From: Candidatus Kapaibacterium sp.
GTDB taxonomy: Bacteria > Bacteroidota > Ignavibacteria > Kapaibacteriales > UBA2268
DNA: 64,000 nt
Reading direction: 5' to 3'
Assembly: GCA_963665665.1 (NCBI GenBank)
Contig: OY762428.1
Span: 320,001 to 384,000 of the forward strand
The notes under the pieces were generated by a model. That model worked only from the letters and a program-made list of their open reading frames with translations. It was not told the DNA's origin and ran no database searches. Positions 1,696 through 17,734 of the stretch are shown piece by piece; position 1 is the first letter of the stretch; every line of letters begins with the position of its first letter. Made by a program: the position numbers and the translations under genes.

Positions 1696-3273
1696 ATGAG
1701 GAAAGTAATTATTGCAGTTATCGTTATGTCAGTTCTATGGCTGATTTACTTTATCAATTTTGATAGCAAGAACATGAAGCTGGCAATATTGAAACAGGAA
1801 ACGGAAAAAATTGCTGAAAGGCCCCAAGTTGTGGATCATTCAAAATTTGCCGTCCTGCAAAAGGATTTCAAAAGTGGGCAGGAAGTTACTGAAGCCTGCC
1901 TATCCTGCCATACCGAAAGGCACAAAGAGCTACTGAATTCATCGCATTTCAAATGGGAACGCGAAGAATATATCAAGGGGAGGGGAATTGTCAGTATTGG
2001 CAAAAAGAATCTTATTAATAATTTTTGTATCGGAATAGCTGGCAGCGAGGGTATGTGTAATAAATGCCACGCAGGCTACGGATGGGCCGATACAACATTT
2101 AATTTCGACGAAGCACATAACATCGACTGCCTTGTATGCCATGATAATTCCGGCGATTATAAAAAGGGAAATATGCTGGCCGGCAACCCGGCTCCGGAGG
2201 TTGACCTTGCGCACGCTGCCACAAATGTCGGGCTTCCGAAGAAAGAAAATTGCGGTAGCTGTCATTTCCTTAGCGGGGGCGGGAATAACGTAAAGCATGG
2301 CGACCTGGAAATGGCATTAGTAAGTACTACAAAAAATATTGATGTCCACATGGGACAGGATGGTGCTGACATGGAGTGTATTGTTTGCCATACTGCCGAA
2401 AATCACAATATCAAGGGAAAGATGTACTCTGTATCTTCCATGAATGAAAACAGGGTGGAATGTGAATCATGCCATTCCGAATCGCCCCACTCGGAAAGCA
2501 TATTGAACGAACATACCGTGAAAGTGGGATGTCAAACATGCCACATTCCAAAATATGCAAAAGTTAATTCAACAAAAATGCACTGGGACTGGTCTAAAGC
2601 CTGTAAAACTATGGATCCGAATTATCACGAAACCGACAGTCTTGGCAATCACGTTTACCTTGGAAAAAAAGGACGATTTGTATGGCAGAGAAATGTTGTT
2701 CCCGAATATGTATTTTTCAACGGAACGGCTGATCACTACCTTATGGGTGATAAAATTCCGGAGGGGGCAAAAGTTGTAAATATTAATACCCTGAATGGCT
2801 CTTATGCCGATAAGGACTCAAAAATTATCCCGGTAAAAATTCACAGGACAAGCCAGCCTTATGATCCTGTTAACAGGTTGTTGATACAACCCAAATTATG
2901 GGATGCGGAATATGGTAATAAAGCTCTTTGGGTTGATTGTAAAACAACTCCTATAGTTGAAATGTGGGGAGTTGCTTCGAAAGCAGGAATGGACTATATC
3001 GGGCTTCCCTATTCGGGAAAATATGATTTTATAAATTCCGCAATGTACTGGCCAGTTAATCACATGGTATCAGAAGCGGACTCTTCGTTAACATGTAATG
3101 ATTGTCATGTCCGTGAAAACGGAAGGCTTGAGCAATTAAGTGGTTTTTATATGCCGGGCCGGGATTACAATTCTATTATTGATTTCCTGGGAATATTTAC
3201 ATTTATCGCTTCAATTGCCGGAATTGCTATCCATGCAATCATAAGGGTAATAACATATAACAGAAACAAATAA
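1696..3273 (+). CDS. otr: Octaheme c-type cytochrome, tetrathionate reductase (OTR) family
   Basis: Eight CxxCH motifs (CLSCH, CNKCH, CLVCH, CGSCH, CIVCH, CESCH, CQTCH, CNDCH); DHSKF, GKKNLINNFCI, VKHGDL, YWPVNHMV; N-terminal signal and C-terminal TM helix. Confidence 0.92.
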   Translation: MRKVIIAVIVMSVLWLIYFINFDSKNMKLAILKQETEKIAERPQVVDHSKFAVLQKDFKSGQEVTEACLSCHTERHKELLNSSHFKWEREEYIKGRGIVSIGKKNLINNFCIGIAGSEGMCNKCHAGYGWADTTFNFDEAHNIDCLVCHDNSGDYKKGNMLAGNPAPEVDLAHAATNVGLPKKENCGSCHFLSGGGNNVKHGDLEMALVSTTKNIDVHMGQDGADMECIVCHTAENHNIKGKMYSVSSMNENRVECESCHSESPHSESILNEHTVKVGCQTCHIPKYAKVNSTKMHWDWSKACKTMDPNYHETDSLGNHVYLGKKGRFVWQRNVVPEYVFFNGTADHYLMGDKIPEGAKVVNINTLNGSYADKDSKIIPVKIHRTSQPYDPVNRLLIQPKLWDAEYGNKALWVDCKTTPIVEMWGVASKAGMDYIGLPYSGKYDFINSAMYWPVNHMVSEADSSLTCNDCHVRENGRLEQLSGFYMPGRDYNSIIDFLGIFTFIASIAGIAIHAIIRVITYNRNK

Positions 3274-3285
3274 AGAGAATTACAA

Positions 3286-3957
3286 ATGAAAAAAGTTTAT
3301 ATATATGATACATTCAACAGGTTCTGGCACTGGCTACAGGCATTGTTAATATTCTTCCTGGGCCTGACAGGCTTTGAAATACACGGTTCATTCCGGTTGT
3401 TTGGATTCGAAACTGCGGTATACTGGCATAATATTTCAGCAATATCATTGATCCTTCTTGTTGTTCTGGCCATATTCTGGCATTTTACCAGCGGAACATG
3501 GAAGCAATATATCCCTACAACTAAAAACCTGATTGCCCAAATCAGATATTATACTGTGGATATATTCAAAAACGGCCCACACCCCGTTAAGAAAACAGTG
3601 CTCAGCAAGCTTAACCCGCTTCAGAAACTGGTTTACCTCGGGCTGAAATTGCTTGTGATACCTGTAATGGTAATTTCCGGGCTTTTTTACATGCTGTACC
3701 GATACCCGCAAAGTGGCGAAATAAAAAGCCTGAATATTGAAGGTCTTGAAATTATTGCATGGGTACATACTGCCGGAGCTTTCGTTCTGCTTTCCTTCGT
3801 TGTTGTCCATATTTATTTAATTACAACCGGACATACATTAAGTTCCAACCTGAAAGCAATGGTAACAGGTTACGAAGAACTGGAAGATGATGATGAAAAT
3901 GATAAGAATAAGAATAAAGATATTTCTGACAACAATCTTGCCGGGGAGTTAAAATGA
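3286..3957 (+). CDS. Cytochrome b/b6-domain membrane subunit (Ni/Fe-hydrogenase cyt b / PhsC-like)
   Basis: RFWHWLQA, LTGFEIH, KLNPLQKL.Y, H..GAF...HIYL; four TM helices with heme His ligands. Confidence 0.88.
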   Translation: MKKVYIYDTFNRFWHWLQALLIFFLGLTGFEIHGSFRLFGFETAVYWHNISAISLILLVVLAIFWHFTSGTWKQYIPTTKNLIAQIRYYTVDIFKNGPHPVKKTVLSKLNPLQKLVYLGLKLLVIPVMVISGLFYMLYRYPQSGEIKSLNIEGLEIIAWVHTAGAFVLLSFVVVHIYLITTGHTLSSNLKAMVTGYEELEDDDENDKNKNKDISDNNLAGELK

Positions 3958-4498: not shown

Positions 4499-5701
4499 AT
4501 GGGACCTTTAGTGCCTTTTGGAATTATTGGATCAGAATTTAACTACCTGATTGCAGCCCTTATTGGTTTTGCATTTGGATATATTCTGGAAAGGGCTGGT
4601 TTTTCTACGTCAAGAAAACTTGTCGGCGTATTTTATGGTTATGATTTTGTTGTTCTCAGGGTATTTTTTACTGCTGCCGCAACAGCAATGACGGGATTGA
4701 TTGTTCTTGATTATCTTGGCTTCATTGATTTTAGTTTTATATATATCAACCCACTGTTCACATGGCCGATGATAGTTGGTGGCATCATTATGGGATTTGG
4801 ATTCATTCTTGGTGGATTTTGTCCTGGAACAAGTATGGCTGCTGCTGCAATTGGAAAAATTGACGCAATGGTATTTTTACTTGGCAGTTTTATCGGAATA
4901 TTTTTCTTCGGGGAAATATTCAGCGGAATTAAAGATTTCTACCTGAGCGGCTCGATGGGGCCAATATTCGTTTATGATTCTCTCGGTATCTCAAGAAGCC
5001 TCTTTGCAGCTATTCTCGGAGTTATTTCAATAGTATCGTTCATAGTAACTTCTGTAATTGAGAAAAAAGTAAGTTATGGCATCGAACCTAATCACCCGAA
5101 ATATAAAATGGCCATTCCGGCTATAACGATTGGATTCGCGGCGGCAATTATTATTTTGATCTTACCCGACGAACGCGAGGGATTAATTGATAAACCGGCT
5201 GATCAAATTGCTGCCGAATATAGTGATGATCTTCGTTATATATCACCGGAAGAAGCTGCTTACGAGATATATTACAACACAGGAAAATTCAATTTTATTG
5301 ATGTTCGAAGCCCTGAAGAATACAAGAAAATGTGTATGCCAAAAGCATTTAATATTGAAACCCAAAATATGCAGAACAAAGCAAACAGCGCATACCTGAA
5401 CCAACCGGGAAAAACAGCCGTATTCTATTCAAAAAACGAGGATGAAGCCGCCAAAGCATTTATTATTGCCCAAAAAGAGGGGTTTTCAAATATTGCAATT
5501 CTAAAGGACGGATTCAGTAACTTCGCGGATAAGTATATTACCGGGAAAGCAAAGATTGGCAGAGCTGCATTTATTGGCGGAAACACAGAAAACTTTCAGG
5601 ACAAAGTTATCAGTTTATTCAAATCGGATTCAACTTTGACCAAACCCAGAAAGAAAAAAGAAATAGTTGTAAAAGCAGTTAAAGTTCAGGGTGGATGTTA
5701 G
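4499..5701 (+). CDS. YeeE/YedE domain fused to a degenerate rhodanese-like domain
   Basis: FGYILERAGF, GFCPGTS (YeeE); FIDVRSPEEY...LKDGF (rhodanese fold); ends KVQGGC. Confidence 0.85.
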   Translation: MGPLVPFGIIGSEFNYLIAALIGFAFGYILERAGFSTSRKLVGVFYGYDFVVLRVFFTAAATAMTGLIVLDYLGFIDFSFIYINPLFTWPMIVGGIIMGFGFILGGFCPGTSMAAAAIGKIDAMVFLLGSFIGIFFFGEIFSGIKDFYLSGSMGPIFVYDSLGISRSLFAAILGVISIVSFIVTSVIEKKVSYGIEPNHPKYKMAIPAITIGFAAAIIILILPDEREGLIDKPADQIAAEYSDDLRYISPEEAAYEIYYNTGKFNFIDVRSPEEYKKMCMPKAFNIETQNMQNKANSAYLNQPGKTAVFYSKNEDEAAKAFIIAQKEGFSNIAILKDGFSNFADKYITGKAKIGRAAFIGGNTENFQDKVISLFKSDSTLTKPRKKKEIVVKAVKVQGGC

Positions 5702-5733
5702 GCAAACAAACGTATTGTAACTATAGAAAAATA

Positions 5734-5766
5734 AAAGGGCTGTCAATTTGGCAGCCTTTCTTTTTT
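5734..5766 (+). terminator. Intrinsic terminator of the otr operon
   Basis: AAAGGGCTGTCA-loop-TGGCAGCCTTT then T-run. Confidence 0.75.
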
Positions 5767-5946
5767 GCAAAGTACCATCTCTTTTTTTAAAATTATTAGC
5801 GATATATTGAATATAAATATTTATTATCCGGCCTCTCCGCTCAGTATGACTTCATAAATTCAGAATAAAGAGACATTGCATCTAAAGAGGCGAACTGTTT
5901 TTTTCGCAAATAAAAGAAGTTTTATTTAAAATCGATATTAAAATTA

Positions 5947-5954
5947 TATATTTG
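5947..5954 (+). promoter_or_regulatory. Bacteroidota-type -7 promoter box (TAnnTTTG)
   Basis: TATATTTG about 45 bp upstream of the SRAP ATG. Confidence 0.45.
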
Positions 5955-5998
5955 AATATAATACTTTCTTTCAATAATTTATTTAACTGGAAATACAA

Positions 5999-6673
5999 AT
6001 GTGCGGAAGATTTGCTTTATCTGCAAAAACTGAAGATGTTGAAAAACTGGTAAAACCTTCGAGGTTTACCAAAGAATTGGTGTCAAGATATAATATAGCA
6101 CCTTCGCAGAAAATTCATATTCTCAGGAATAATTCTGATAATATTGCCGAGGAATTCCGATGGGGGCTGATACCTTCGTGGGCAAAGGATATTTCTATCG
6201 CTAATAAAATGATAAATGCCCGCTCGGAAAGTCTTTCAGAAAAACCTGCTTTCAGGAATCTTCTGAAATCAAAGAGATGCCTGATTTACGCTGACGGTTT
6301 CTATGAATGGAGAAAAGGCGGACGGTCGAAAATACCGTATTTTATTCATTTCAAAGATTCAAGGCCCTTTACATTTGCCGGCCTCTGGGATAAGTGGATC
6401 AGCCCGGATGGAGAGATAATCGAATCGGCTGTTATCATTACCACCGAACCCAATTCTGTAGTCGCACCGATACACAATCGTATGCCGGTAATTTTGAAAC
6501 CTGAATTCAGGAAATCATGGCTGTATGAAGATTTTTCAAACATCAACACAGAAGAATTATTAATTCCTTGTAATCCAGATGAGATGGAAGCATTCGAGGT
6601 TTCAACAATGGTTAACAGCCCTGTAAATGATTCGCCTGAATGTATTCAGGCTCCGGAGGGCCGCTTATTCTGA
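5999..6673 (+). CDS. yedK: SOS response-associated peptidase (SRAP/HMCES, abasic-site protecting protein)
   Basis: N-terminal MCGRF, YNIAP, WGLIPSW, INARSE, GFYEW, IHNRMP. Confidence 0.93.
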   Translation: MCGRFALSAKTEDVEKLVKPSRFTKELVSRYNIAPSQKIHILRNNSDNIAEEFRWGLIPSWAKDISIANKMINARSESLSEKPAFRNLLKSKRCLIYADGFYEWRKGGRSKIPYFIHFKDSRPFTFAGLWDKWISPDGEIIESAVIITTEPNSVVAPIHNRMPVILKPEFRKSWLYEDFSNINTEELLIPCNPDEMEAFEVSTMVNSPVNDSPECIQAPEGRLF

Positions 6674-6741
6674 CAGCAATAAAGAGAAAGTTTAATCGTG
6701 CAGAAAATGTATATTATTGAAATTATCGAAACAGGGATTTA

Positions 6742-7548
6742 ATGAAGATTGTTACATGGAATATAAACGGCTACAGATCGATCAGCGGCCAGAACCCAAG
6801 CAAGCGCTATGATAAAGTAACAAAAGAAAACAAGCTTTTTGAATATGTTGAAAATGAGAAACCCGACATCCTGATGATGCAGGAAACAAAGGCAAACGAA
6901 GACCAGATAAACGAAGAATTACGCTGTCCGCCGGGTTACCATGCCTATTACCATTCCTGCGAAGTAAAAAAAGGATATAGCGGAACAGCAATATTCACAA
7001 AGGAAGAACCAAAAGAAATAATCAGGAAATTCGGTATCGACAGGTTTGACGGCGAAGGGCGGGTTCTTGGGGCTGATTTCGGAGAATTCATCATTTTCAA
7101 TGTTTATTTCCCCAAAGGATATGCTGATTCCGAAAGGCTGACCTTTAAGCTCGATTTTTACGATGAATTTTTTGATTATGTCGAGAAATTAAGATCCGGA
7201 GGCAGAAAAATAATTGTTTCAGGCGATTACAATACTGCTCATAATGAGATCGACCTGGCACGTCCAAAACAAAATACAGGCACATCGGGATTTATGCCCG
7301 AGGAAAGAGTAAAACTTGACGAGTTGCAAAGCAGAGGGTGGGTTGACGCATTCCGGAAGTTCGAAAAGGAAAACGGACATTATACCTGGTGGAGCCAGCG
7401 CGGACGAGCACGTGAAAACAACGTTGGATGGCGTATTGATTACCATTGGCTGACTGAAGACCTGCTGCCTAATCTGAAAAATGCCTACCAGCAACCAGAA
7501 CAAACAGGCAGTGATCACTGTCCCGTTGTTGCTGAAATGGAATTTTAG
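6742..7548 (+). CDS. xth: Exodeoxyribonuclease III / AP endonuclease
   Basis: TWNING, QETK, GYSGT, GDYN.AH, YTWW, GWRIDY, SDHCPV. Confidence 0.95.
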   Translation: MKIVTWNINGYRSISGQNPSKRYDKVTKENKLFEYVENEKPDILMMQETKANEDQINEELRCPPGYHAYYHSCEVKKGYSGTAIFTKEEPKEIIRKFGIDRFDGEGRVLGADFGEFIIFNVYFPKGYADSERLTFKLDFYDEFFDYVEKLRSGGRKIIVSGDYNTAHNEIDLARPKQNTGTSGFMPEERVKLDELQSRGWVDAFRKFEKENGHYTWWSQRGRARENNVGWRIDYHWLTEDLLPNLKNAYQQPEQTGSDHCPVVAEMEF

Positions 7549-7680
7549 TATCTACCGAAAATATTTTGTACAATTCAAAATATTGAAAATAATTTCCTAC
7601 TTTGAAAATTAATTGAAATATTAATCGTTATAGATTTTGTGAATATTATTTTTGATTTCTTCATTGAAAATTAACCGGGT

Positions 7681-8352
7681 TTGTATATGAAAGTTTTGAT
7701 ACTGAATTGTCATAAAGAAGATAATGATGATATTAACCGGATTCTTGATCCTTTTATTAAGGGTATTGAAGAATCTGGAGCCGAAGTAGAGCAGATCGAT
7801 ACCCGATCGCTTGAAATCAGTCCCTGCCGGGGATGTACCTCATCGATTAGCTTCAAATCTGATGGGCATTGTTTCTGCGAAGATGATATGAATTCCTTAT
7901 ATCCAAAATTCAGAGAATCTGATATTTGGGTTTTCACATCTTCCGACGACGGGAATTGCAATAATCCCAAACTGATGAACATAATGGACAGAATGGAACC
8001 TCTTTTTCCGAAAACATTTGAAGATGATACTGATATGAAAGGAAAAATTGCTTTTATATCTACAACAAAATCAAATACCGGCGAAAAAATCCAAACTGTG
8101 GCCGATGAGTTTATGAGCATAAGTGCCCTGTTCAATAAAGAATATGCCGGTGCATTACTCAGGCCCCAGGCTTCGTCGATCAAAGTTGTGCAAAATCTTG
8201 GAGGAAATATCGATGATATTTTCCAGGCCGCCAAAGACGCTGGAAAGCAAATAATTTTAAACGGCAAAATTGAATCCAATACGATTAAAACATTTGAGAG
8301 AAGCCTTTTTGATGATAAAAAGCTTCTAGAAGTTCTTGCGTCAAAAGTATAA
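7681..8352 (+). CDS. Flavodoxin-fold protein related to iron-sulfur flavoprotein / NADPH-dependent FMN reductase
   Basis: MKVLILN start, GAEVE, PCRGC...HC.CEDDM, 'A..AGK' C-terminus; canonical FMN motifs degenerate. Confidence 0.7.
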   Translation: MYMKVLILNCHKEDNDDINRILDPFIKGIEESGAEVEQIDTRSLEISPCRGCTSSISFKSDGHCFCEDDMNSLYPKFRESDIWVFTSSDDGNCNNPKLMNIMDRMEPLFPKTFEDDTDMKGKIAFISTTKSNTGEKIQTVADEFMSISALFNKEYAGALLRPQASSIKVVQNLGGNIDDIFQAAKDAGKQIILNGKIESNTIKTFERSLFDDKKLLEVLASKV

Positions 8353-8373
8353 AATTAGCATTCAGAGCAATTT

Positions 8374-8402
8374 AAAAACCACCAGTTCTGGTGGTTTTTT
8401 TT
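8374..8402 (+). terminator. Intrinsic terminator
   Basis: AAAAACCACCAG-TT-CTGGTGGTTTTTTTT. Confidence 0.8.
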
Positions 8403-8647
8403 GTTAATCCTTTATTATCAACGATTACAATTGAAAACCCTCGGAAAATTTTAATGTAATATTCCTGAAAAGCAATATTTTTTCTAAAAACTTTAAACTT
8501 TTTCTTTTTCAATGTGTATATGAAACAAGAGTAATTTATCTTATTTTGAATTGTTATGATTTGTAACTATTTTTGAAATACACATATTGATTGCGAAATA
8601 TAGGTTTAAATGAAAGATTAACGAATATTAATGCAGAAGTCGGGAAA

Positions 8648-9990
8648 ATGAAAAAACAGTTTTGGATAGTATTGATTTTAATAATTGGTTCGGTAAATGT
8701 TTCCGCACAATGGGAATGCAGAAGTAAACTTGCAGCTCATCTTAGCCCTATAGCAGGATCTGATTTGCTATGGGCTGCCGAATTCACTCTTGGCGGCGGA
8801 GTTTTAAGCCATAATAATATATATAATTACCTTGGGCTTGTTGCTCTGGACTACAGCTTCGATAATAGTACTTTTTATATTGAAGGTGGCGGCAAATACT
8901 GGCAGAACAGACAGGAAAACCCGGATGTGATCTTCAAAAAAGGACGGCCCGGTTTACGTGAGGCATATTTTAAAAACAGATCAAAATTTGGCGATATTAC
9001 AATAGGCCTTCAATCAATTACACTTAATGATGACTACCTTTTGAATGAAAGAATACTCGGGCTGAATTACAAGCTAAATTCAGGTAAATGGATGATAAAT
9101 CTTACCGGAGGTACTGTTTCACAGGATTTTTCACGTCAGGGAACATTTTGCGGTACATGTTTCTTATACGACATTATACCCGGCAGACAAAGAAATTTAA
9201 TCAGCCACGAACTGGGCCGGTCAAATTTTACTGTAATTTCATTTAGTTATTCCCCGCGTTTAGAAGTTGATGAAGAATACGAAGAATTAGCGGACGATGA
9301 GTTTGCTGATGTTTCAGATGAGTTTTCTGACGCAGGGGATGAATTTGAAGATGTTTCAGACGTGTTTTCAGATGCATCTGATGAATTCGGAGAATTTGAC
9401 GAAACAGTAGCAAAATCTACCCCATTTGCGAAGATTGAAGAAACCGGAGCAGTTCTATATACAGAATTTGGAAGCATTTACAATAACCTTCCCATTTTGG
9501 GTGGATTATTCTTTGACTTGTCATTCTTTGAAGACTGGCATATCAAACCGGAATTATTATACCAGGCCCAGAATGAAAACAACGGAATTATATTTAACTT
9601 TTCTCTGAGAAGAGATATTATTTGGGAAAACACTCATAAAACAGGATTTGTACTTGAATATACGGGATTTTCCGCAATTGATGACAATGCTTTCGCGGCA
9701 AATTCATTTCAAATATTTTCGCCGGTGAAGTTTTAAGGCTGGATATTCCCGAATCTGACATTGTTTTGGTTGGTATAAGGCATATAATACCATCATCCAA
9801 ACTTCATTTCAAACTTCAGTACGCGGAACTGATAGATGAACCGGGTATGAGGGAAATTGACTTCCAGGCCGGTAAAACATTTTTTGACCACTTGCTGGTT
9901 AACGTTATATTTGGATATATTGAAAGTAATTTGATAATCAACAGGGATTCAGCGCTTCTTGCCAGGATGGAAATAAGGCTAAGTTTTTAA
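8648..9990 (+). pseudogene. Outer-membrane beta-barrel protein split by a single -1 frameshift (ORFs 8591..9736 and 9766..9990); mutation or assembly error
   Basis: Signal peptide MKKQFWIV...VSA-Q; alternating aromatic beta-strands; adding one T at 9707-9709 gives ...NSFSNIFAGEVLRLDIPESDIVLVGIRH... ending RMEIRLSF (C-terminal Phe). Confidence 0.7.
9296..9397 (+). repeat. Degenerate 21-bp tandem repeat (about 5 copies) encoding DEFxDxx heptads
   Basis: gatgagtttgctgatgtttca / gatgagttttctgacgcaggg / gatgaatttgaagatgtttca / gacgtgttttcagatgcatct / gatgaattcggagaattt. Confidence 0.85.
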
Positions 9991-10010: not shown

Positions 10011-10277
10011 ATGAAAAGAAGAGAATTCTGCAGAAGCTTCCTTGGTTTTGGAAGCACAATTGTACTGGCCGGAGCAATAAGTTCATGTGGTGTACTCGAA
10101 GCAGGAGTTTACACGATAAACCAGGAAAATTGCGATGGTTGCGGAGACTGTGTTAACTCATGTAGTTACGGTGCTATCGAATTGAAAGATGATAAAGCAG
10201 CCATTCTGACATCAAAATGCGAAGGCTGCGGTAAATGTAAAAGTAAATGTGATAACGGGGCGATCAGTGAAGAGTAA
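10011..10277 (+). CDS. 2[4Fe-4S] ferredoxin with Tat-lipoprotein signal
   Basis: MKRREF twin-Arg, lipobox ISSC; CDGCGDCVNSC and CEGCGKCKSKC. Confidence 0.85.
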   Translation: MKRREFCRSFLGFGSTIVLAGAISSCGVLEAGVYTINQENCDGCGDCVNSCSYGAIELKDDKAAILTSKCEGCGKCKSKCDNGAISEE

Positions 10278-10296: not shown

Positions 10297-11655
10297 ATGA
10301 ACAGGAGAAATTTCCTGTCAGGAATAGGAAAAGTAACAGCAGTTGCTGCTTTTATGCCAATAATAAACGCCTGCGAAAACCCGAGCATGTATTCTGCTCT
10401 TGCAGTAAATGAGGAGCTTTGTACCGGTTGCGGAGACTGTCTTCCACATTGCTTTTACGATGCCATTGACCTGCCGGCAAAAAGTAAATACACAATACTT
10501 ACAGATACTTGTACCAGGTGTGGGCTTTGCCTTGATGCCTGCCCTGACGATGCAATTACACTTGTTCCGAGTTTATATTCAATAGATAGGGAAAAATGTA
10601 TTGAATGCGGGGAATGCCTGCCATTCTGCAAGGATAATGCCCTGATAATTACTCCAAAAAATTATACTATTAATGAGGATAAATGTATAGAATGCGGTGA
10701 ATGTATCCCATCCTGCCCCGAGGATGCTTTTGAAATTGCCGTTAAAGAATACCGGATTGATGATGACGAATGTACTGATTGCGGAGATTGCTTGAAAGTA
10801 TGCGAACCTGATGCGATCAAACTTCATATCACTGATCTGAAATATACGATTAATGATTCTTGCATTGGTTGTGGCGACTGCGTTGAGGAATGCAAAGAAG
10901 AAGGAGATGCTATCTTCTACGTCAGGGAGCATTATAATATCAGAAATGGCCGCTGCCACGGATGTATCCAGAAATGTAGTTCTGTTTGCGAGGATGATGC
11001 AATTTTTCTTGAGAGCGGAAAAGTAAAAATTGATGAAGATAAATGCACAAAATGCGGAAAGTGCCTTGAACGCTGCCCTTATGCAGCTATCAATAAAGCC
11101 TATGTCGAGATTGACCAGAATAGATGCACTAAATGTGGCGAATGTTACGGAGAATGTGAATATGATGCCATAAACAAACTGGGAACAGTTAACAACTTCA
11201 ATTCCCACATCGATCAGGATAAATGTACAAGTTGTGGTGAATGCTATACAGCATGCACCCACGAAGCAATTGATATAAAGCAGGCTTCCGAACCGGAACA
11301 TCCGGGGATTAACCAGGATAAATGCACCAACTGCGGGAAATGTATATCCGAATGCCCTTATGAAGCAATCGAAGTTGATGGATCTGACGGTGATCCTCAT
11401 ATTGACCAGGATCTGTGTACTAATTGCGGCGATTGCGTTCCCGGTTGCCCCTATGATGCAATTAATGTGAATGAATCTGAGATATTACCAAATATAGATC
11501 AGGATAAATGTTCCAAATGCGGTGATTGTTATGATGTATGTGAGGATGAATCAATTAACGCAGTTATCAGCACAGCCAGAATAATTGATGAGAACTGTTA
11601 CAAATGCGGTAAATGCCTGGAGGTTTGCCCGGAGCATGCAATTAAGAATGTTTAA
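10297..11655 (+). CDS. Polyferredoxin (14 [4Fe-4S] motifs) with Tat-lipoprotein signal
   Basis: Start at ATG 10297 gives MNRRNFL...PIINAC; 13 CxxCxxCxxxC motifs plus one CxxCxxxCxxxC variant. Confidence 0.88.
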   Translation: MNRRNFLSGIGKVTAVAAFMPIINACENPSMYSALAVNEELCTGCGDCLPHCFYDAIDLPAKSKYTILTDTCTRCGLCLDACPDDAITLVPSLYSIDREKCIECGECLPFCKDNALIITPKNYTINEDKCIECGECIPSCPEDAFEIAVKEYRIDDDECTDCGDCLKVCEPDAIKLHITDLKYTINDSCIGCGDCVEECKEEGDAIFYVREHYNIRNGRCHGCIQKCSSVCEDDAIFLESGKVKIDEDKCTKCGKCLERCPYAAINKAYVEIDQNRCTKCGECYGECEYDAINKLGTVNNFNSHIDQDKCTSCGECYTACTHEAIDIKQASEPEHPGINQDKCTNCGKCISECPYEAIEVDGSDGDPHIDQDLCTNCGDCVPGCPYDAINVNESEILPNIDQDKCSKCGDCYDVCEDESINAVISTARIIDENCYKCGKCLEVCPEHAIKNV

Positions 11656-11656
11656 T

Positions 11657-12046
11657 ATGCGAAGGTCAATAATTATATTGTTGCTCCTTGTTCCCACATT
11701 TTTCATATCCGGAAAATTATTAGCCGGTTCCGGGAAAGCTGTTGCAAAAGTCAAAGTCATCTCTCCGGAAACTCATAAATATAACATCGGAGATACTCTT
11801 AATGTTATTATAATGATAAAACTGCCAAAAGAAATTTGCCTGGAAGGAATGAAGTTCACAAAAGTTTTTGCAAGTGGAATGGATATTATTAGCGAAAAAA
11901 ACTGGAAACCTGTAAAACCCGGTTTTTGGAAAAAGAAATTGAAACTGGTTTTTAATAATCACAATAACCAATTCGGACAACTTACAATATATAGAAAAGC
12001 TGATAAAGGCAGCCTTATTCATAAAGAAAAATTTTACCTGCAATAG
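11657..12046 (+). CDS. Small secreted basic protein of unknown function
   Basis: ATG 1 bp after the polyferredoxin stop; MRRSIIILLLL signal peptide; Lys-rich, beta-strand-like. Confidence 0.65.
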   Translation: MRRSIIILLLLVPTFFISGKLLAGSGKAVAKVKVISPETHKYNIGDTLNVIIMIKLPKEICLEGMKFTKVFASGMDIISEKNWKPVKPGFWKKKLKLVFNNHNNQFGQLTIYRKADKGSLIHKEKFYLQ

Positions 12047-13069
12047 ATGAATACTTTAGTTAACATATCGACAGGCAAAAAAAGCTTCAGGGAGTTACTT
12101 GCCCGCTGGATTGTCATTGGCGGAATAATATTAATGGCTGCCGATACAATATACATGGCTTACAACGGAATAAACGCTGCAAACCGGCAATTGTGTATTA
12201 TATACTGTTCGCTGCCGCGTTGGGCTTTTTTCACATGGGAATATATCATCGAACTTCTTCTTGTTGTCCTGGTAGGAGTTTTTGCAGGAGTTCTGATTGA
12301 GCACTATTCCAAAAAAATAAAAAGATTTTACCCCAAAAATCCGTTTCTAGCATTTGTTTACGCTTCAATTATTCCTGTATGTTCCTGTGGTGTCATTCCT
12401 GTTATTGATTCCCTGAAGGGCGATATTAAGTTGAAAACTATCATCACATTTGTGATTGCAGCACCTTTGCTAAACCCTTATATAATATTTATTTCATTCA
12501 GCGTTTTGGGTTGGGAATACGCTTTGATTCGAATTGCCGCCTCATTTGTGATTGCTGTTGGTGGAGGATTCCTGGCAGAAAGCGTTTTTAGAAAATTCAA
12601 CCTGAATATCCAGAACGGGAAAAAGCAATGCTCTTCAAGCTGCGCTGTCCATGAAAAAGACCTGTTCGTAAAGACACTCAAAATCATGCGCAAGCTTCTG
12701 CCCTATATAATAATTGCCGGAGCACTTACACTATCATTCGAATTTCTTACGCCAAAAAGATTTCTGGAAACACTGAATTTTTCTAATGAACCATTATCAA
12801 TGGCGCTTATGCTTGTTGTCGGTATTCCAATCTATGTTTGCAACGGAGCTGATGTATTATTTCTACGCCCGCTATTGGAATTCACTGATCTTTCCCTGGC
12901 ATCAGCCATGATCTTTTCCCTTGCTTCATCATCAGTATGTATTTCTTCAATCGTTATGCTTGCAAAATATCTTGGCCGAAAACAGACTGCTATTCTTATC
13001 GGAATATTGACCGTATTAATTTTCGGTGTAGCTTTTACAATAAATGTTGTAAGCGGTATCATGGGGTAA
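12047..13069 (+). CDS. DUF318/ArsP-family permease
   Basis: PVCSCGVIP, FVIAAPLLNP, GIPIYVCNG; about 9 TM segments; abuts upstream stop. Confidence 0.85.
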   Translation: MNTLVNISTGKKSFRELLARWIVIGGIILMAADTIYMAYNGINAANRQLCIIYCSLPRWAFFTWEYIIELLLVVLVGVFAGVLIEHYSKKIKRFYPKNPFLAFVYASIIPVCSCGVIPVIDSLKGDIKLKTIITFVIAAPLLNPYIIFISFSVLGWEYALIRIAASFVIAVGGGFLAESVFRKFNLNIQNGKKQCSSSCAVHEKDLFVKTLKIMRKLLPYIIIAGALTLSFEFLTPKRFLETLNFSNEPLSMALMLVVGIPIYVCNGADVLFLRPLLEFTDLSLASAMIFSLASSSVCISSIVMLAKYLGRKQTAILIGILTVLIFGVAFTINVVSGIMG

Positions 13070-15485: not shown

Positions 15486-16664
15486 ATGTTTAAAAAATCT
15501 ATACTCCTTTTGCTTATAGCATTTATTTGTTGGCCTTCTGGTTTATCCTTTTCTCAGGAAAAAGATTTATATCTTGGAATCGGAGCCGGTTTGTCGCGAG
15601 GCATGAACGAAGGCAAAAGAGACGAAAGAACCATTGGCGCTGTATTCGGGGCCAACGCACTAATTACTAATGCCATCGGAAAGGGTTTGACTCCGGAATT
15701 CAATTTCAACTATTTTAAAAATGGTACGGACGAATTCGGGCTTTATTCCCAATACGAAACTACTCACATGACATTCGACTTGCGTATGAGGTTTTATCCT
15801 TTTGAGCAGAAAGGCTTGCAGCCTTATGCTTTTGCCGGACTCGGAGCAATAATGTTCAATGTTGATGAAATGCCTCCAAATCCCGATCCCGAATCCGAGG
15901 ACAGTGGTGTGGCATTGAATATCCCTGTTGGGGTTGGTATTTCATATTTCTTCAACGAAACTGTCGGGCTGGACTTTAATGCCGGAGCTTACATGACCAG
16001 TACTGATGATATAAACCCGGTTTGGGATGATGTGACTGATGCAAACTGGGTTGGGAAGCTTTCGGTCCTTTTCAGGGTTCACAGGTTTGAAAAGGACACA
16101 GATGGCGACGGCCTTTCAGATAAAGAAGAAATGAAACTTGGAACAGATCCGAATAATCCTGATTCTGACGGCGACGGTCTGATGGACGGAGAGGAAGTTA
16201 ATGAATACAAAACAGATCCTCTCAATCCGGATACAGACGGCGGAGGAATAAAAGACGGCGTTGAAGTACAAAACGGAGCCGATCCTCTTGACGGGGATGA
16301 CGACATTCTAAGTATCAAACCCGGTGAAAAACTTATCCTGAAAAACATCGAGTTCGAATTTGCCAAATCCAGAATAACTAATAAATCAGAGAGGATTCTT
16401 GGATTTGCAGTTAAAGCTTTGAAAGCCGCTGAAAACATGGAAATTGAAATTGTTGGCCATACTGACGATGTTGGTGATATTGAAACCAACCTGAAACTCT
16501 CTCAGGACCGTGCTGATGCTGTTAAGAAATGGCTTGTTGACAATGGAATTGACGAGTCAAGGTTATCGACCCGTGGCGAAGGGCCTAATCAGCCTCTTGT
16601 TCCGAATACAAATGCCACAAACAGGCAGAAAAACAGAAGAGTGGAATTTATCAGAACAAAATAA
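15486..16664 (+). CDS. OmpA-family protein: N-terminal beta-barrel, TSP3-like Ca-binding repeats, peptidoglycan-binding domain
   Basis: DTDGDGLSD / DSDGDGLMD / DTDGGG repeats; GHTD, NLKLSQDRA, NRRVEF. Confidence 0.9.
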   Translation: MFKKSILLLLIAFICWPSGLSFSQEKDLYLGIGAGLSRGMNEGKRDERTIGAVFGANALITNAIGKGLTPEFNFNYFKNGTDEFGLYSQYETTHMTFDLRMRFYPFEQKGLQPYAFAGLGAIMFNVDEMPPNPDPESEDSGVALNIPVGVGISYFFNETVGLDFNAGAYMTSTDDINPVWDDVTDANWVGKLSVLFRVHRFEKDTDGDGLSDKEEMKLGTDPNNPDSDGDGLMDGEEVNEYKTDPLNPDTDGGGIKDGVEVQNGADPLDGDDDILSIKPGEKLILKNIEFEFAKSRITNKSERILGFAVKALKAAENMEIEIVGHTDDVGDIETNLKLSQDRADAVKKWLVDNGIDESRLSTRGEGPNQPLVPNTNATNRQKNRRVEFIRTK

Positions 16665-16682
16665 GAAATATACTAATTAAGC

Positions 16683-16717
16683 AAAAGCCCTTTGATCTGA
16701 ATTTCAAAGGGCTTTTT
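16683..16717. terminator. Bidirectional terminator between convergent genes
   Basis: AAAAGCCCTTTGA-loop-TCAAAGGGCTTTTT. Confidence 0.8.
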
Positions 16718-16720
16718 CAA

Positions 16721-17734
16721 TTACTTTTTATCTTTCTTCTTCTTTCGCAGGTCTTTCCACTTTTTAATTATTTCAATTTCCTCATCACTTAAATTATCGG
16801 GCATATCAATATTCAGCTTAATGAACAAAGCTCCTTTTTTGTCCGGATCATTATAGTCAGGCATACCAAGGCCGTTAAGTTTCAATTTTTTTCCCTGCCC
16901 TGAACCTGGCGGGATAGTTATTTTCACTTTACCGGCAAAGGTAGATATCATAGTAGTGCCGCCAAGCAGAGCTTTGAAAAGATCGATATTAATATCAACA
17001 TACAGGTCATCCCCATTCCTTTCAACTCTCGGGTGTTCATTTACTTTAACCTTAATTATCAGGTCGCCCTTCGGCCCTCCTGTTTTGCCGGGCAATCCTT
17101 TTCCGCTGATTTTCTGGACATGTCCGTCTTTTATTCCCTGCTTAAATTTTATATCGAATTTATCTCCATTCACAGATAAAAGCCTGGATGTTCCCTTAAA
17201 AGCCTCCTCGAGAGAAATTTCAACTTCTGTTTTGTAATCCTCTCCCTTTTTGGCTTGCTTTTTAAATCCTGCTCCCGGGTTAAAACCTTTACCACCGCCA
17301 AATCCGCCAAATATCTTCTCAAAAAAGTCCGACATGCCTCCGGAATCGAATATATCACCGACAGTTTTACCTGACCTGCCAAATCCGCCTCCACCGCGAG
17401 GCCCGCCTGCATTTTTCTGGTTGAACCAGTCCTGCCAGTTGAAGTCAGAACTATTTCCTCCGGACTGACGAAAATTATTGAAAGAGGATCCCAGGTTGTC
17501 ATATTTGGCCCTTTTTTCAGGATCCTTCAATACCTGGTATGCTTCGCTTATATTTTTGAATTTCTCCTCAGCAGAAGCATCGCTTTTATTTTTATCGGGA
17601 TGATACTTCTGAGCAAGCTTGTGATATGCTTTTTTTATCTCCGCATCGCTTGCTTTCCTGTCAACCCCCAGTATTTTATAATAGTCCTTAAAATCCATAT
17701 CAAACCTGAAAAATTTATTTTTATCCCAATACAA
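16721..17734 (-). CDS. cbpA: DnaJ-class co-chaperone without Zn finger (CbpA-like)
   Basis: [14 protein letters not shown]-rich linker, DnaJ_C domain, no CxxCxGxG repeats. Confidence 0.8.

Follow-up and report, generated by a model that had tools for sequence, protein, structure and literature searches.

A fourteen-motif polyferredoxin with export signals

We analysed a gene for a polyferredoxin, a protein with 14 ferredoxin-type four-cysteine motifs, in a 64,000-nucleotide stretch of DNA from Candidatus Kapaibacterium sp. (GenBank assembly GCA_963665665.1, contig OY762428.1, positions 320,001 to 384,000; this whole stretch is termed the window). Judging from its sequence, the product is probably the precursor of a lipoprotein that is exported and offers sites for some 14 iron-sulfur clusters. 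The gene belongs to a five-gene operon together with genes for a porin-like outer-membrane beta-barrel, a mini paralogue of the polyferredoxin, a small secreted basic protein and a permease (Table 1).

Table 1. Features of the polyferredoxin operon (window positions; pI, isoelectric point).
Feature	Coordinates	Strand	Remarks
Terminator-like hairpin after the flavin mononucleotide (FMN)-reductase-like gene; likely upstream operon boundary	8374..8399	+	consensus scan only
Porin-like outer-membrane beta-barrel gene	8648..9990	+	signal peptide MKKQFWIVLILIIGSVNVSAQ, acidic DEF-repeat insertion, C-terminal RLSF
88-amino-acid mini paralogue	10011..10277	+	RR signal (MKRREF), lipobox-type ISSC, two ferredoxin motifs
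Polyferredoxin lipoprotein precursor (predicted)	10297..11655	+	452 amino acids, 14 four-Cys motifs; mature protein 427 amino acids, pI 4.3
Predicted Tat signal peptide, residues 1-25 (NRRNFL), and lipobox-type Cys26 (codon 10372-10374)	10297..10374	+	family-invariant R3, R4 and C26
Variant landmark motif CHGCIQKCSSVC, motif 7 of 14, conserved centre of the array	10954..10989	+	slot N/2 in 45 of 48 members
Small secreted basic protein	11657..12046	+	129 amino acids, mature pI 9.9; start 1 nucleotide past the polyferredoxin stop
ArsP_1-type permease	12047..13069	+	340 amino acids; Pfam ArsP_1, E 6.6e-28; starts directly past the previous stop codon

An earlier note on this DNA had described 14 ferredoxin motifs behind a start typical of the twin-arginine translocation (Tat) pathway, and this description was borne out. 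The 57 cysteines of the protein correspond exactly to 14 motifs of four plus Cys26. Thirteen motifs follow the canonical pattern CxxCxxCxxxC and one (residues 220-231) the variant CxxCxxxCxxxC; successive motifs start 27-33 amino acids apart, and six of them are followed by a proline. Pfam Fer4 matched the protein with an E-value of 3.5e-74 over 12 separate stretches, Fer4_6 matched over 13 stretches, and the dicluster model Fer4_21 matched with an E-value of 5e-59. Paired CX2CX2CX3C(P) motifs recognized by models of the Fer4 clan are the mark of 2[4Fe-4S] ferredoxin-type domains, and both the motifs and the family-model matches support the [4Fe-4S]-type nature that had been proposed for them. 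The heme motif CxxCH is absent from the polyferredoxin.

The N-terminus of the protein reads MNRRNFLSGIGKVTAVAAFMPIINAC. Residues R3, R4 and C26, the last of which marks the end of the hydrophobic stretch, were invariant in all 32 aligned members of the family described below, and the arginine pair (RR) was present in 48 of the 48 family sequences examined. An N-terminal RR motif (S/T-R-R-x-F-L-K type) ahead of a hydrophobic stretch, in a genome that encodes Tat machinery (TatC, 211 bits), predicts a Tat substrate. Across the 32 members the lipobox has an invariant Cys, preceded by A, S, G or N at position -1, by an often polar residue at -2 and by a hydrophobic one at -3. The Tat signal and lipobox Cys are thus real features of the family, and lipidation of Cys26 appears likely, with some uncertainty given the atypical residue at -2.

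An in-frame GTG at 10249 provides an alternative start that would add 16 residues, and is disfavoured because several homologues begin 1-4 residues ahead of the RR, as does the product of the ATG at 10297. This codon and the occurrence in databases of signal-less 14-motif polyferredoxins of 445-463 amino acids (P0277, P0278 and P0280) are what could be said for a cytoplasmic protein with a wrong start or a dead signal, similar to the polyferredoxins of methanogens, or for a decaying gene. However, the homologues align from the RR motif onwards with both RR and Cys invariant, which upholds the start with its Tat signal; signal-less proteins of archaea reach no more than 26-29% identity with the polyferredoxin; and the frame is intact, a close relative from an independent study differing by substitutions only, with no indel listed across the gene. 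We find a cytoplasmic or decaying product hardly credible. A 14-motif polyferredoxin is not new in itself, and the novelty lies in the predicted exported lipoprotein form: our literature searches, exclusive of supplements, turned up neither an exported lipoprotein polyferredoxin nor the barrel/polyferredoxin gene set.

A family extended symmetrically around a central landmark

A search of 5.8 billion proteins returned 720 matches, the top 31 of which form a distinct family of 271-395 amino acids; where they align with the query, they share 36-44% of its residues. When 1.84 billion representatives were searched exhaustively with a profile, 48 proteins were obtained at E<=1e-30, and from its matches we estimate the family at about 20-30 clusters at 50% identity. 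Among 41 of the best matches, 19 carry the RR, 17 of these also have a lipobox-type Cys, and the RR proteins are all of 412 amino acids or less. The family is of Bacteroidota type and rare, and the polyferredoxin of the window is the longest member seen. A comparison of motif counts among homologues, suggested in the earlier note, showed that the number varies in steps of two: members have 8, 10, 12 or 14 motif slots, in addition to some mini versions with 4-6.

All larger members share a landmark composed of an EG.AI.Y....Y.V block followed by the variant motif Cx2-4Cx3Cx3C. In 45 of the 48 family sequences examined (39 by one detection method and six more by a motif regular expression) this landmark occupies slot N/2, that is slot 4 of 8, 5 of 10, 6 of 12 or 7 of 14. 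When homologues were matched unit by unit, the unmatched units of the query divided equally between units 1-5 and units 9-14 in 32 of 33 comparisons, and units 6-8 were always matched. It is to be noted that the assignment of individual query units as 'extra' was inconsistent between homologues, and that only the balance between the N-terminal and C-terminal arms was robust. Were a whole two-motif domain added at one site, the landmark would move by either 0 or 2 slots. In fact it moves by one slot per step, and therefore one unit is added on each side. From this we infer that unit i of the N-arm pairs with unit N+1-i of the C-arm. A hairpin of variable length, made of stacked two-cluster ferredoxin domains, is what the insertion rule suggests. 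Such a non-sequential domain order has a precedent, since ferredoxin domains sit within other domains in MvhB: in its solved structure, Fd2 and Fd6 form an insertion that separates Fd1 from Fd5, and duplication was proposed as the means of elongation (PMC13580544).

The repeats themselves are old and diverged. The earlier note had pointed to near-identical units in the C-terminal half and to a repeat expansion that tunes wire length; the units are not near-identical, and a recent expansion is not supported. Pairwise identity between units is 25-55% at the protein level and at most 69% at the DNA level, Tandem Repeats Finder detected no tandem array in the polyferredoxin gene, and the sole DNA repeat is a 37-nucleotide motif-coding core with 61-78% identity. 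The common string IDQDKCTxCGxC consists of the ferredoxin consensus and a few flanking residues.

Structure prediction with AlphaFold2 (AF2) gave a model of the 14-motif protein that is confident only over about residues 190-330 (mean predicted local distance difference test, pLDDT, 61.8; predicted template modelling score, pTM, 0.41). Foldseek found only local, ferredoxin-level matches to this model (template modelling score, TM, 0.1-0.15 to FwdF), with ArrB (6cz7_B) and PsrB (2vpw_B) among the weaker fold matches. By sequence, the best matches in the PDB were MvhB (9sw6_G, E 7e-25) and FwdF/FmdF (5t5i_F, E 5e-19). Clusters in clostridial ferredoxins are spaced by about 12 Å, and 14 of them arranged in a line at this spacing would, by our estimate, extend over some 150 Å. 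The earlier note had envisaged a rod possibly long enough to span the periplasm; there is no need for such a fixed length, because relatives with 8 clusters have the same gene context.

That the motif number ranges freely from 8 to 14 in one gene context, and that mini versions with 2 to 6 motifs exist, would also suit a periplasmic redox buffer or sink, either an electron capacitor or a scavenger of oxygen or reactive oxygen species, whose motif number would set its capacity and not its length. The strict symmetry of insertion suggests a defined architecture instead, and the conserved linkage to membrane and outer-membrane partners, presented in the next section, suggests directed transfer. 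We judge a buffer function quite improbable.

Operon, porin-like barrel and proposed NapH-like partner

The five operon genes are separated by gaps of 20, 19, 1 and 0 nucleotides, and the consensus scan detected no terminator-like site on the + strand between 8399 and 13069. The best alignment of the mini paralogue is with the polyferredoxin over its signal and motifs 1 and 2 (36% identity, E 1e-12). The small basic protein, which matched no Pfam family, and the small protein encoded ahead of NapH-like genes in this and related genomes are diverged paralogues; the former has 25% identity (E 7e-10) to the copy elsewhere in its own genome and an E-value of 1.4e-4 to the copy of the relative G017. 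The permease scored 74 bits against the NCBIfam SO_0444 family of Cu/Zn efflux proteins, under the cut-off of 300.

Several genes ahead of the operon were recorded as well. Directly upstream, with the hairpin between them and the operon, window positions 7681-8352 encode a flavoprotein of FMN_red type (Pfam E 3e-7) that contains the Cys-rich insert CRGC...HCFC. Positions 1696-3957, 4.7 kb upstream of the operon, hold an octaheme cytochrome of the tetrathionate reductase family (547 bits, cut-off 375), followed by a thiosulfate-reductase-type cytochrome b that scored below its cut-off. Just ahead of the octaheme cytochrome gene lies that of a MerR-type regulator with a Cys-rich C-terminal tail (1220-1681), all of whose NCBIfam matches are below cut-off.

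The barrel gene splits into two frames in the window, and tblastn alignments with the orthologues of G017 and G168 break at 9706-9709. Since the contigs of all four public runs carry an extra T behind 9706, in a run of T, we consider the gene intact and the split a homopolymer assembly error in the window, not the sign of a pseudogene; three of these runs come from one sample, possibly the source, and the fourth, with a depth of 3.4, from another study. The barrel matched no Pfam family and has only nine homologues at E<=1e-5. The AF2 model of the G017 orthologue is all-beta (pLDDT 73, pTM 0.72) with about 18 strands, as counted by eye from the DSSP string, and its best Foldseek matches were MOMP (E 8e-12), the OprD/Occ porins and chitoporin, all of which are 18-stranded porins. 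A disordered acidic insertion with DEF repeats lies between strands 8 and 9 and would, from strand parity in the model, face the periplasm. Acidic (D/E)(D/E)F repeats were observed in two unrelated envelope proteins, the barrel (about residues 236-266, encoded at window 9290-9390) and the NapH-like protein, where they lie at the N-terminus; further coordinates of such repeats are about 9170-9290 of locus L067 and 7220-7345 and 8895-8985 of locus L057.

The polyferredoxin is found in two of the 400 other genomes of the class sample (G017 and G640) and in one of the 400 other genomes of the phylum sample (G168); a single-protein query of 40 relatives detected it only in G017, and a scan of genome contigs with the single protein retrieved nothing but generic loci with ferredoxin motifs. 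Barrel and polyferredoxin occur in exactly the same three of the 401 class-sample genomes, which all belong to one family and are not independent of each other. G168, a member of another family, also carries both. The barrel and lipoprotein genes are adjacent in three of the four carrier genomes. In G017 and G168 the gene order is small secreted protein, NapH-like membrane Fe-S protein, barrel and polyferredoxin, and G005 displays the same order as far as the end of its contig. In G640, the NapH-like and barrel genes share a contig and a 12-motif polyferredoxin stands alone on another. Three of the four polyferredoxins are acidic (pI 4.3-4.8), that of G640 having a pI of 7.9. G020 retains an intact pair of small protein and NapH-like genes, behind which lies a short barrel remnant with stop codons (L082, about 5594-5722); the single-protein query did not find the polyferredoxin in this genome, where the half of the module that comprises barrel and polyferredoxin seems to have been lost.

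Additional neighbours were noted in G168 (locus L062). Directly downstream of the polyferredoxin, positions 4971-9290 encode a 1439-amino-acid RND (resistance-nodulation-division) transporter of the CusA/CzcA family (1167 bits, cut-off 701) fused to an outer-membrane efflux (OEP) domain. About 3 kb from the module (16035-17708) we found a multiheme cytochrome and a cytochrome b of the same type as in the window; this resemblance may reflect a real link or a coincidence.

The genome from which the window derives has its own pair of a small secreted Cys/His protein and a NapH-like protein at C1:3417563-3419225 (L067 8563-10225), the latter with a DEF-rich acidic N-terminus. The NapH-like protein (C1:3418005-3419225) reached 74.4 bits against the NapH model TIGR02163, whose cut-off is 213, and matched Pfam Fer4_5 over two stretches (E 8.6e-14); the presumed partner is, from these scores, NapH-like and not NapH, a protein characterized by four transmembrane helices with two CX3CP motifs and by two cytoplasmic clusters. 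The NapH-like family is widespread, with 366 matches at E<=1e-20, and our search for a named function of the small-protein/NapH-like pair returned none. Equal lengths of the longest contigs hint, without weight as evidence, that some database polyferredoxins and NapH-like proteins (6340, 24712 and 296186 bp) and some barrels and NapH-like proteins (15756, 5330 and 188954 bp) are encoded on shared contigs. A complex prediction for the NapH-like protein (residues 23-395) and the G017 polyferredoxin (residues 31-297) gave a score of 0.03 against a mark of 0.32, which has no bearing on binding in either direction. With a pI of 9.2-9.9, the small secreted proteins that belong to the module are strongly basic, and one may speculate that they bridge acidic partners.

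A proposed role in envelope electron transfer

The explanation that we prefer, with a confidence a little above an even chance, is that of a Tat-exported, lipid-anchored hairpin polyferredoxin acting as electron partner of the NapH-like protein. The polyferredoxin would acquire up to 14 [4Fe-4S] clusters while still in the cytoplasm, pass through Tat in folded form and be anchored by a lipid at Cys26. Motifs would have been added in pairs, one on each side of the central landmark, each pair of N-arm and C-arm units forming one clostridial-type two-cluster domain. A stack of 4 to 7 such domains could make up a stalk that has its N- and C-terminus beside the lipid anchor and carries the conserved core at its tip. 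In the periplasm, the protein would most likely serve the NapH-like protein as an elongated NapG; that it carries electrons from this protein through the periplasm is suggested by analogy with the NapG/NapH pairing. The quinone pool of the inner membrane would thereby exchange electrons with a reaction that takes place near the outer membrane and requires the porin-like channel. The strict co-inheritance of porin and polyferredoxin suggests that the acceptor, or a cation, may enter through the outer membrane. Metal cations are our leading guess for the terminal acceptor because of the neighbouring metal transporters (CusA/CzcA in G168, ArsP_1 in the window) and the acidic repeats.

Several observations weigh against this scheme. 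The symmetry rule has exceptions, P0271 having seven slots with its landmark at slot 4 and two 6-slot proteins having no landmark, and the hairpin fold derives from this counting rule and not from a structure. Position -2 of the lipobox is N (INAC), which lies outside the classical consensus [LVI][ASTVI][GAS]C. With respect to the partners, the polyferredoxin has no match to a NapG model: NapG/MauM TIGR00397 (cut-off 178.85 bits) matched nothing at E<=0.001 anywhere in the genome. The NapH-like gene of the same genome is about 3.09 Mb away from the polyferredoxin, the G640 polyferredoxin lies apart from the NapH-like and barrel genes, and most NapH-like proteins work without a polyferredoxin, as follows from their 366 matches compared with about 20-30 polyferredoxin clusters. 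Finally, the metal idea comes from neighbour genes in two of the four loci.

Metals could be more central than in our preferred scheme. If the module were a metal-handling system and not a respiratory one, the acidic porin would admit metal cations, the polyferredoxin, fed by the NapH-like protein, would reduce them in the periplasm, and the small basic protein together with ArsP- or CzcA-type transporters would move the product. The NapH-like protein is a relative of the cupric reductase CcoG. In G168 the CusA/CzcA pump and a CzcB-like adaptor directly follow the polyferredoxin, and the permease of the window, which weakly resembles the SO_0444 Cu/Zn exporters, is translationally coupled. DEF-rich acidic segments in both the barrel and the NapH-like protein, and Cys and His residues in the small proteins ahead of the NapH-like genes (G017 and own genome), point in the same direction. 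On the other hand, transporter neighbours were seen in two of the four loci only and are of different families, most of those Cys are missing from the small protein of the window, none of the family matches was to a metal-binding family, and a simple metal reductase would hardly need as many as 8-14 clusters in a chain. We regard this system as rather unlikely.

The adjacency of barrel and lipoprotein genes in three of the four carriers and their strict co-occurrence could alternatively denote a porin-ferredoxin conduit for extracellular electron transfer, in which the polyferredoxin, flipped to the cell surface or plugging the barrel, would pass electrons across the outer membrane to insoluble or extracellular acceptors, as in MtrCAB or the DmsAB of Shewanella but by way of Fe-S clusters and not hemes. 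Many lipoproteins of Bacteroidota are surface-flipped, and several family members have acidic residues right after the lipobox-type Cys (CEN, CSD, CQEE) that resemble the surface-export signals of such lipoproteins. The octaheme cytochrome and cytochrome b upstream in the window, and the multiheme cytochrome and cytochrome b near the G168 module, may also be counted in its favour. However, a barrel of about 18 strands falls far short of MtrB with its 26 strands and would not be wide enough for a ferredoxin domain, and [4Fe-4S] clusters exposed at the surface would be oxygen-labile. Such a conduit seems to us unlikely.

Returning to the hairpin polyferredoxin as electron partner of the NapH-like protein, we also envisage, as something possible rather than probable, a cytochrome-free nanowire of the envelope, in which hairpin stalk, barrel, NapH-like protein and small basic adaptor would convey respiratory electrons across the periplasm to a substrate at or beyond the outer membrane in anaerobic Bacteroidota, the length of the stalk having been set in evolution by one additional unit per arm at a time. 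To our knowledge, long-range electron transfer in the envelope is known almost only from multiheme cytochromes, and long polyferredoxin 'nanowires' only from the inside of methanogen and acetogen cells. If the proposal is true, an exported, lipid-anchored family that holds 8-14 clusters and has an outer-membrane channel of its own would represent a second, heme-free solution, the Fe-S counterpart of Mtr-type conduits, and the symmetric insertion rule would offer a simple and testable structural principle for lengthening a wire. As the family is small and sharply defined, its export, cluster content and shape should be accessible to tests with a handful of constructs.

Among known systems, the four-cluster proteins NrfC, HybA, PsrB, DmsB and ArrB are likewise Tat-exported electron-transfer subunits of ferredoxin fold. 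Unlike the polyferredoxin, they serve catalytic molybdo- or heme enzymes; no catalytic partner gene was found in the four loci examined. A closer parallel is NapG/NapH, a Tat-exported ferredoxin and a NapH-type membrane protein forming a quinol dehydrogenase, the two being fused in the polyferredoxin PFD of delta proteobacterium MLMS-1 (Tooke et al. 2017, PMC5449189). The likeness consists in a predicted Tat-dependent periplasmic ferredoxin with multiple [4Fe-4S] clusters, encoded in relatives beside a polytopic Fer4_5 membrane protein. The differences are the predicted 8-14 clusters of the family (four in NapG/NapH), the predicted lipid anchor, the absence of nap genes nearby, the extra acidic N-terminal segment of the NapH-like partner and the porin-like barrel in the gene set.

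Long tandem CX2CX2CX3C(P) arrays are shared with the methanogen proteins MvhB (12 clusters), FwdF/FmdF and the VhuB/EhbK type, which are intracellular 'nanowires'. We know of no description of the symmetric N/2 landmark rule for them. In contrast to the polyferredoxin of the window, they are cytoplasmic, archaeal and devoid of a signal peptide, with 26-29% identity to it; scores of 126.4 bits against VhuB NF045874 (cut-off 600) and 131 against FwdF NF042909 (cut-off 375) place it outside both families, and the operon contains neither hydrogenase nor formylmethanofuran dehydrogenase (Fwd) genes, to which MvhB/VhuB and FwdF are linked. Domains inserted within domains and elongation by duplication would be traits in common with MvhB (PMC13580544).

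Among systems that work beyond the inner membrane, MtrCAB is a porin-cytochrome conduit in which a large barrel sheathes a multiheme protein, and the DmsAB of Shewanella (DmsEFAB) is a Tat-exported, surface-exposed Fe-S enzyme. As in MtrCAB and DmsEFAB, an outer-membrane barrel gene adjoins that of a periplasmic or lipoprotein redox protein with multiple centres. Unlike MtrCAB, the redox protein described here would carry Fe-S clusters and not hemes, having no heme motifs, and its barrel is not MtrB-like but a predicted porin-like one of about 18 strands, with the folds of general or specific porins.

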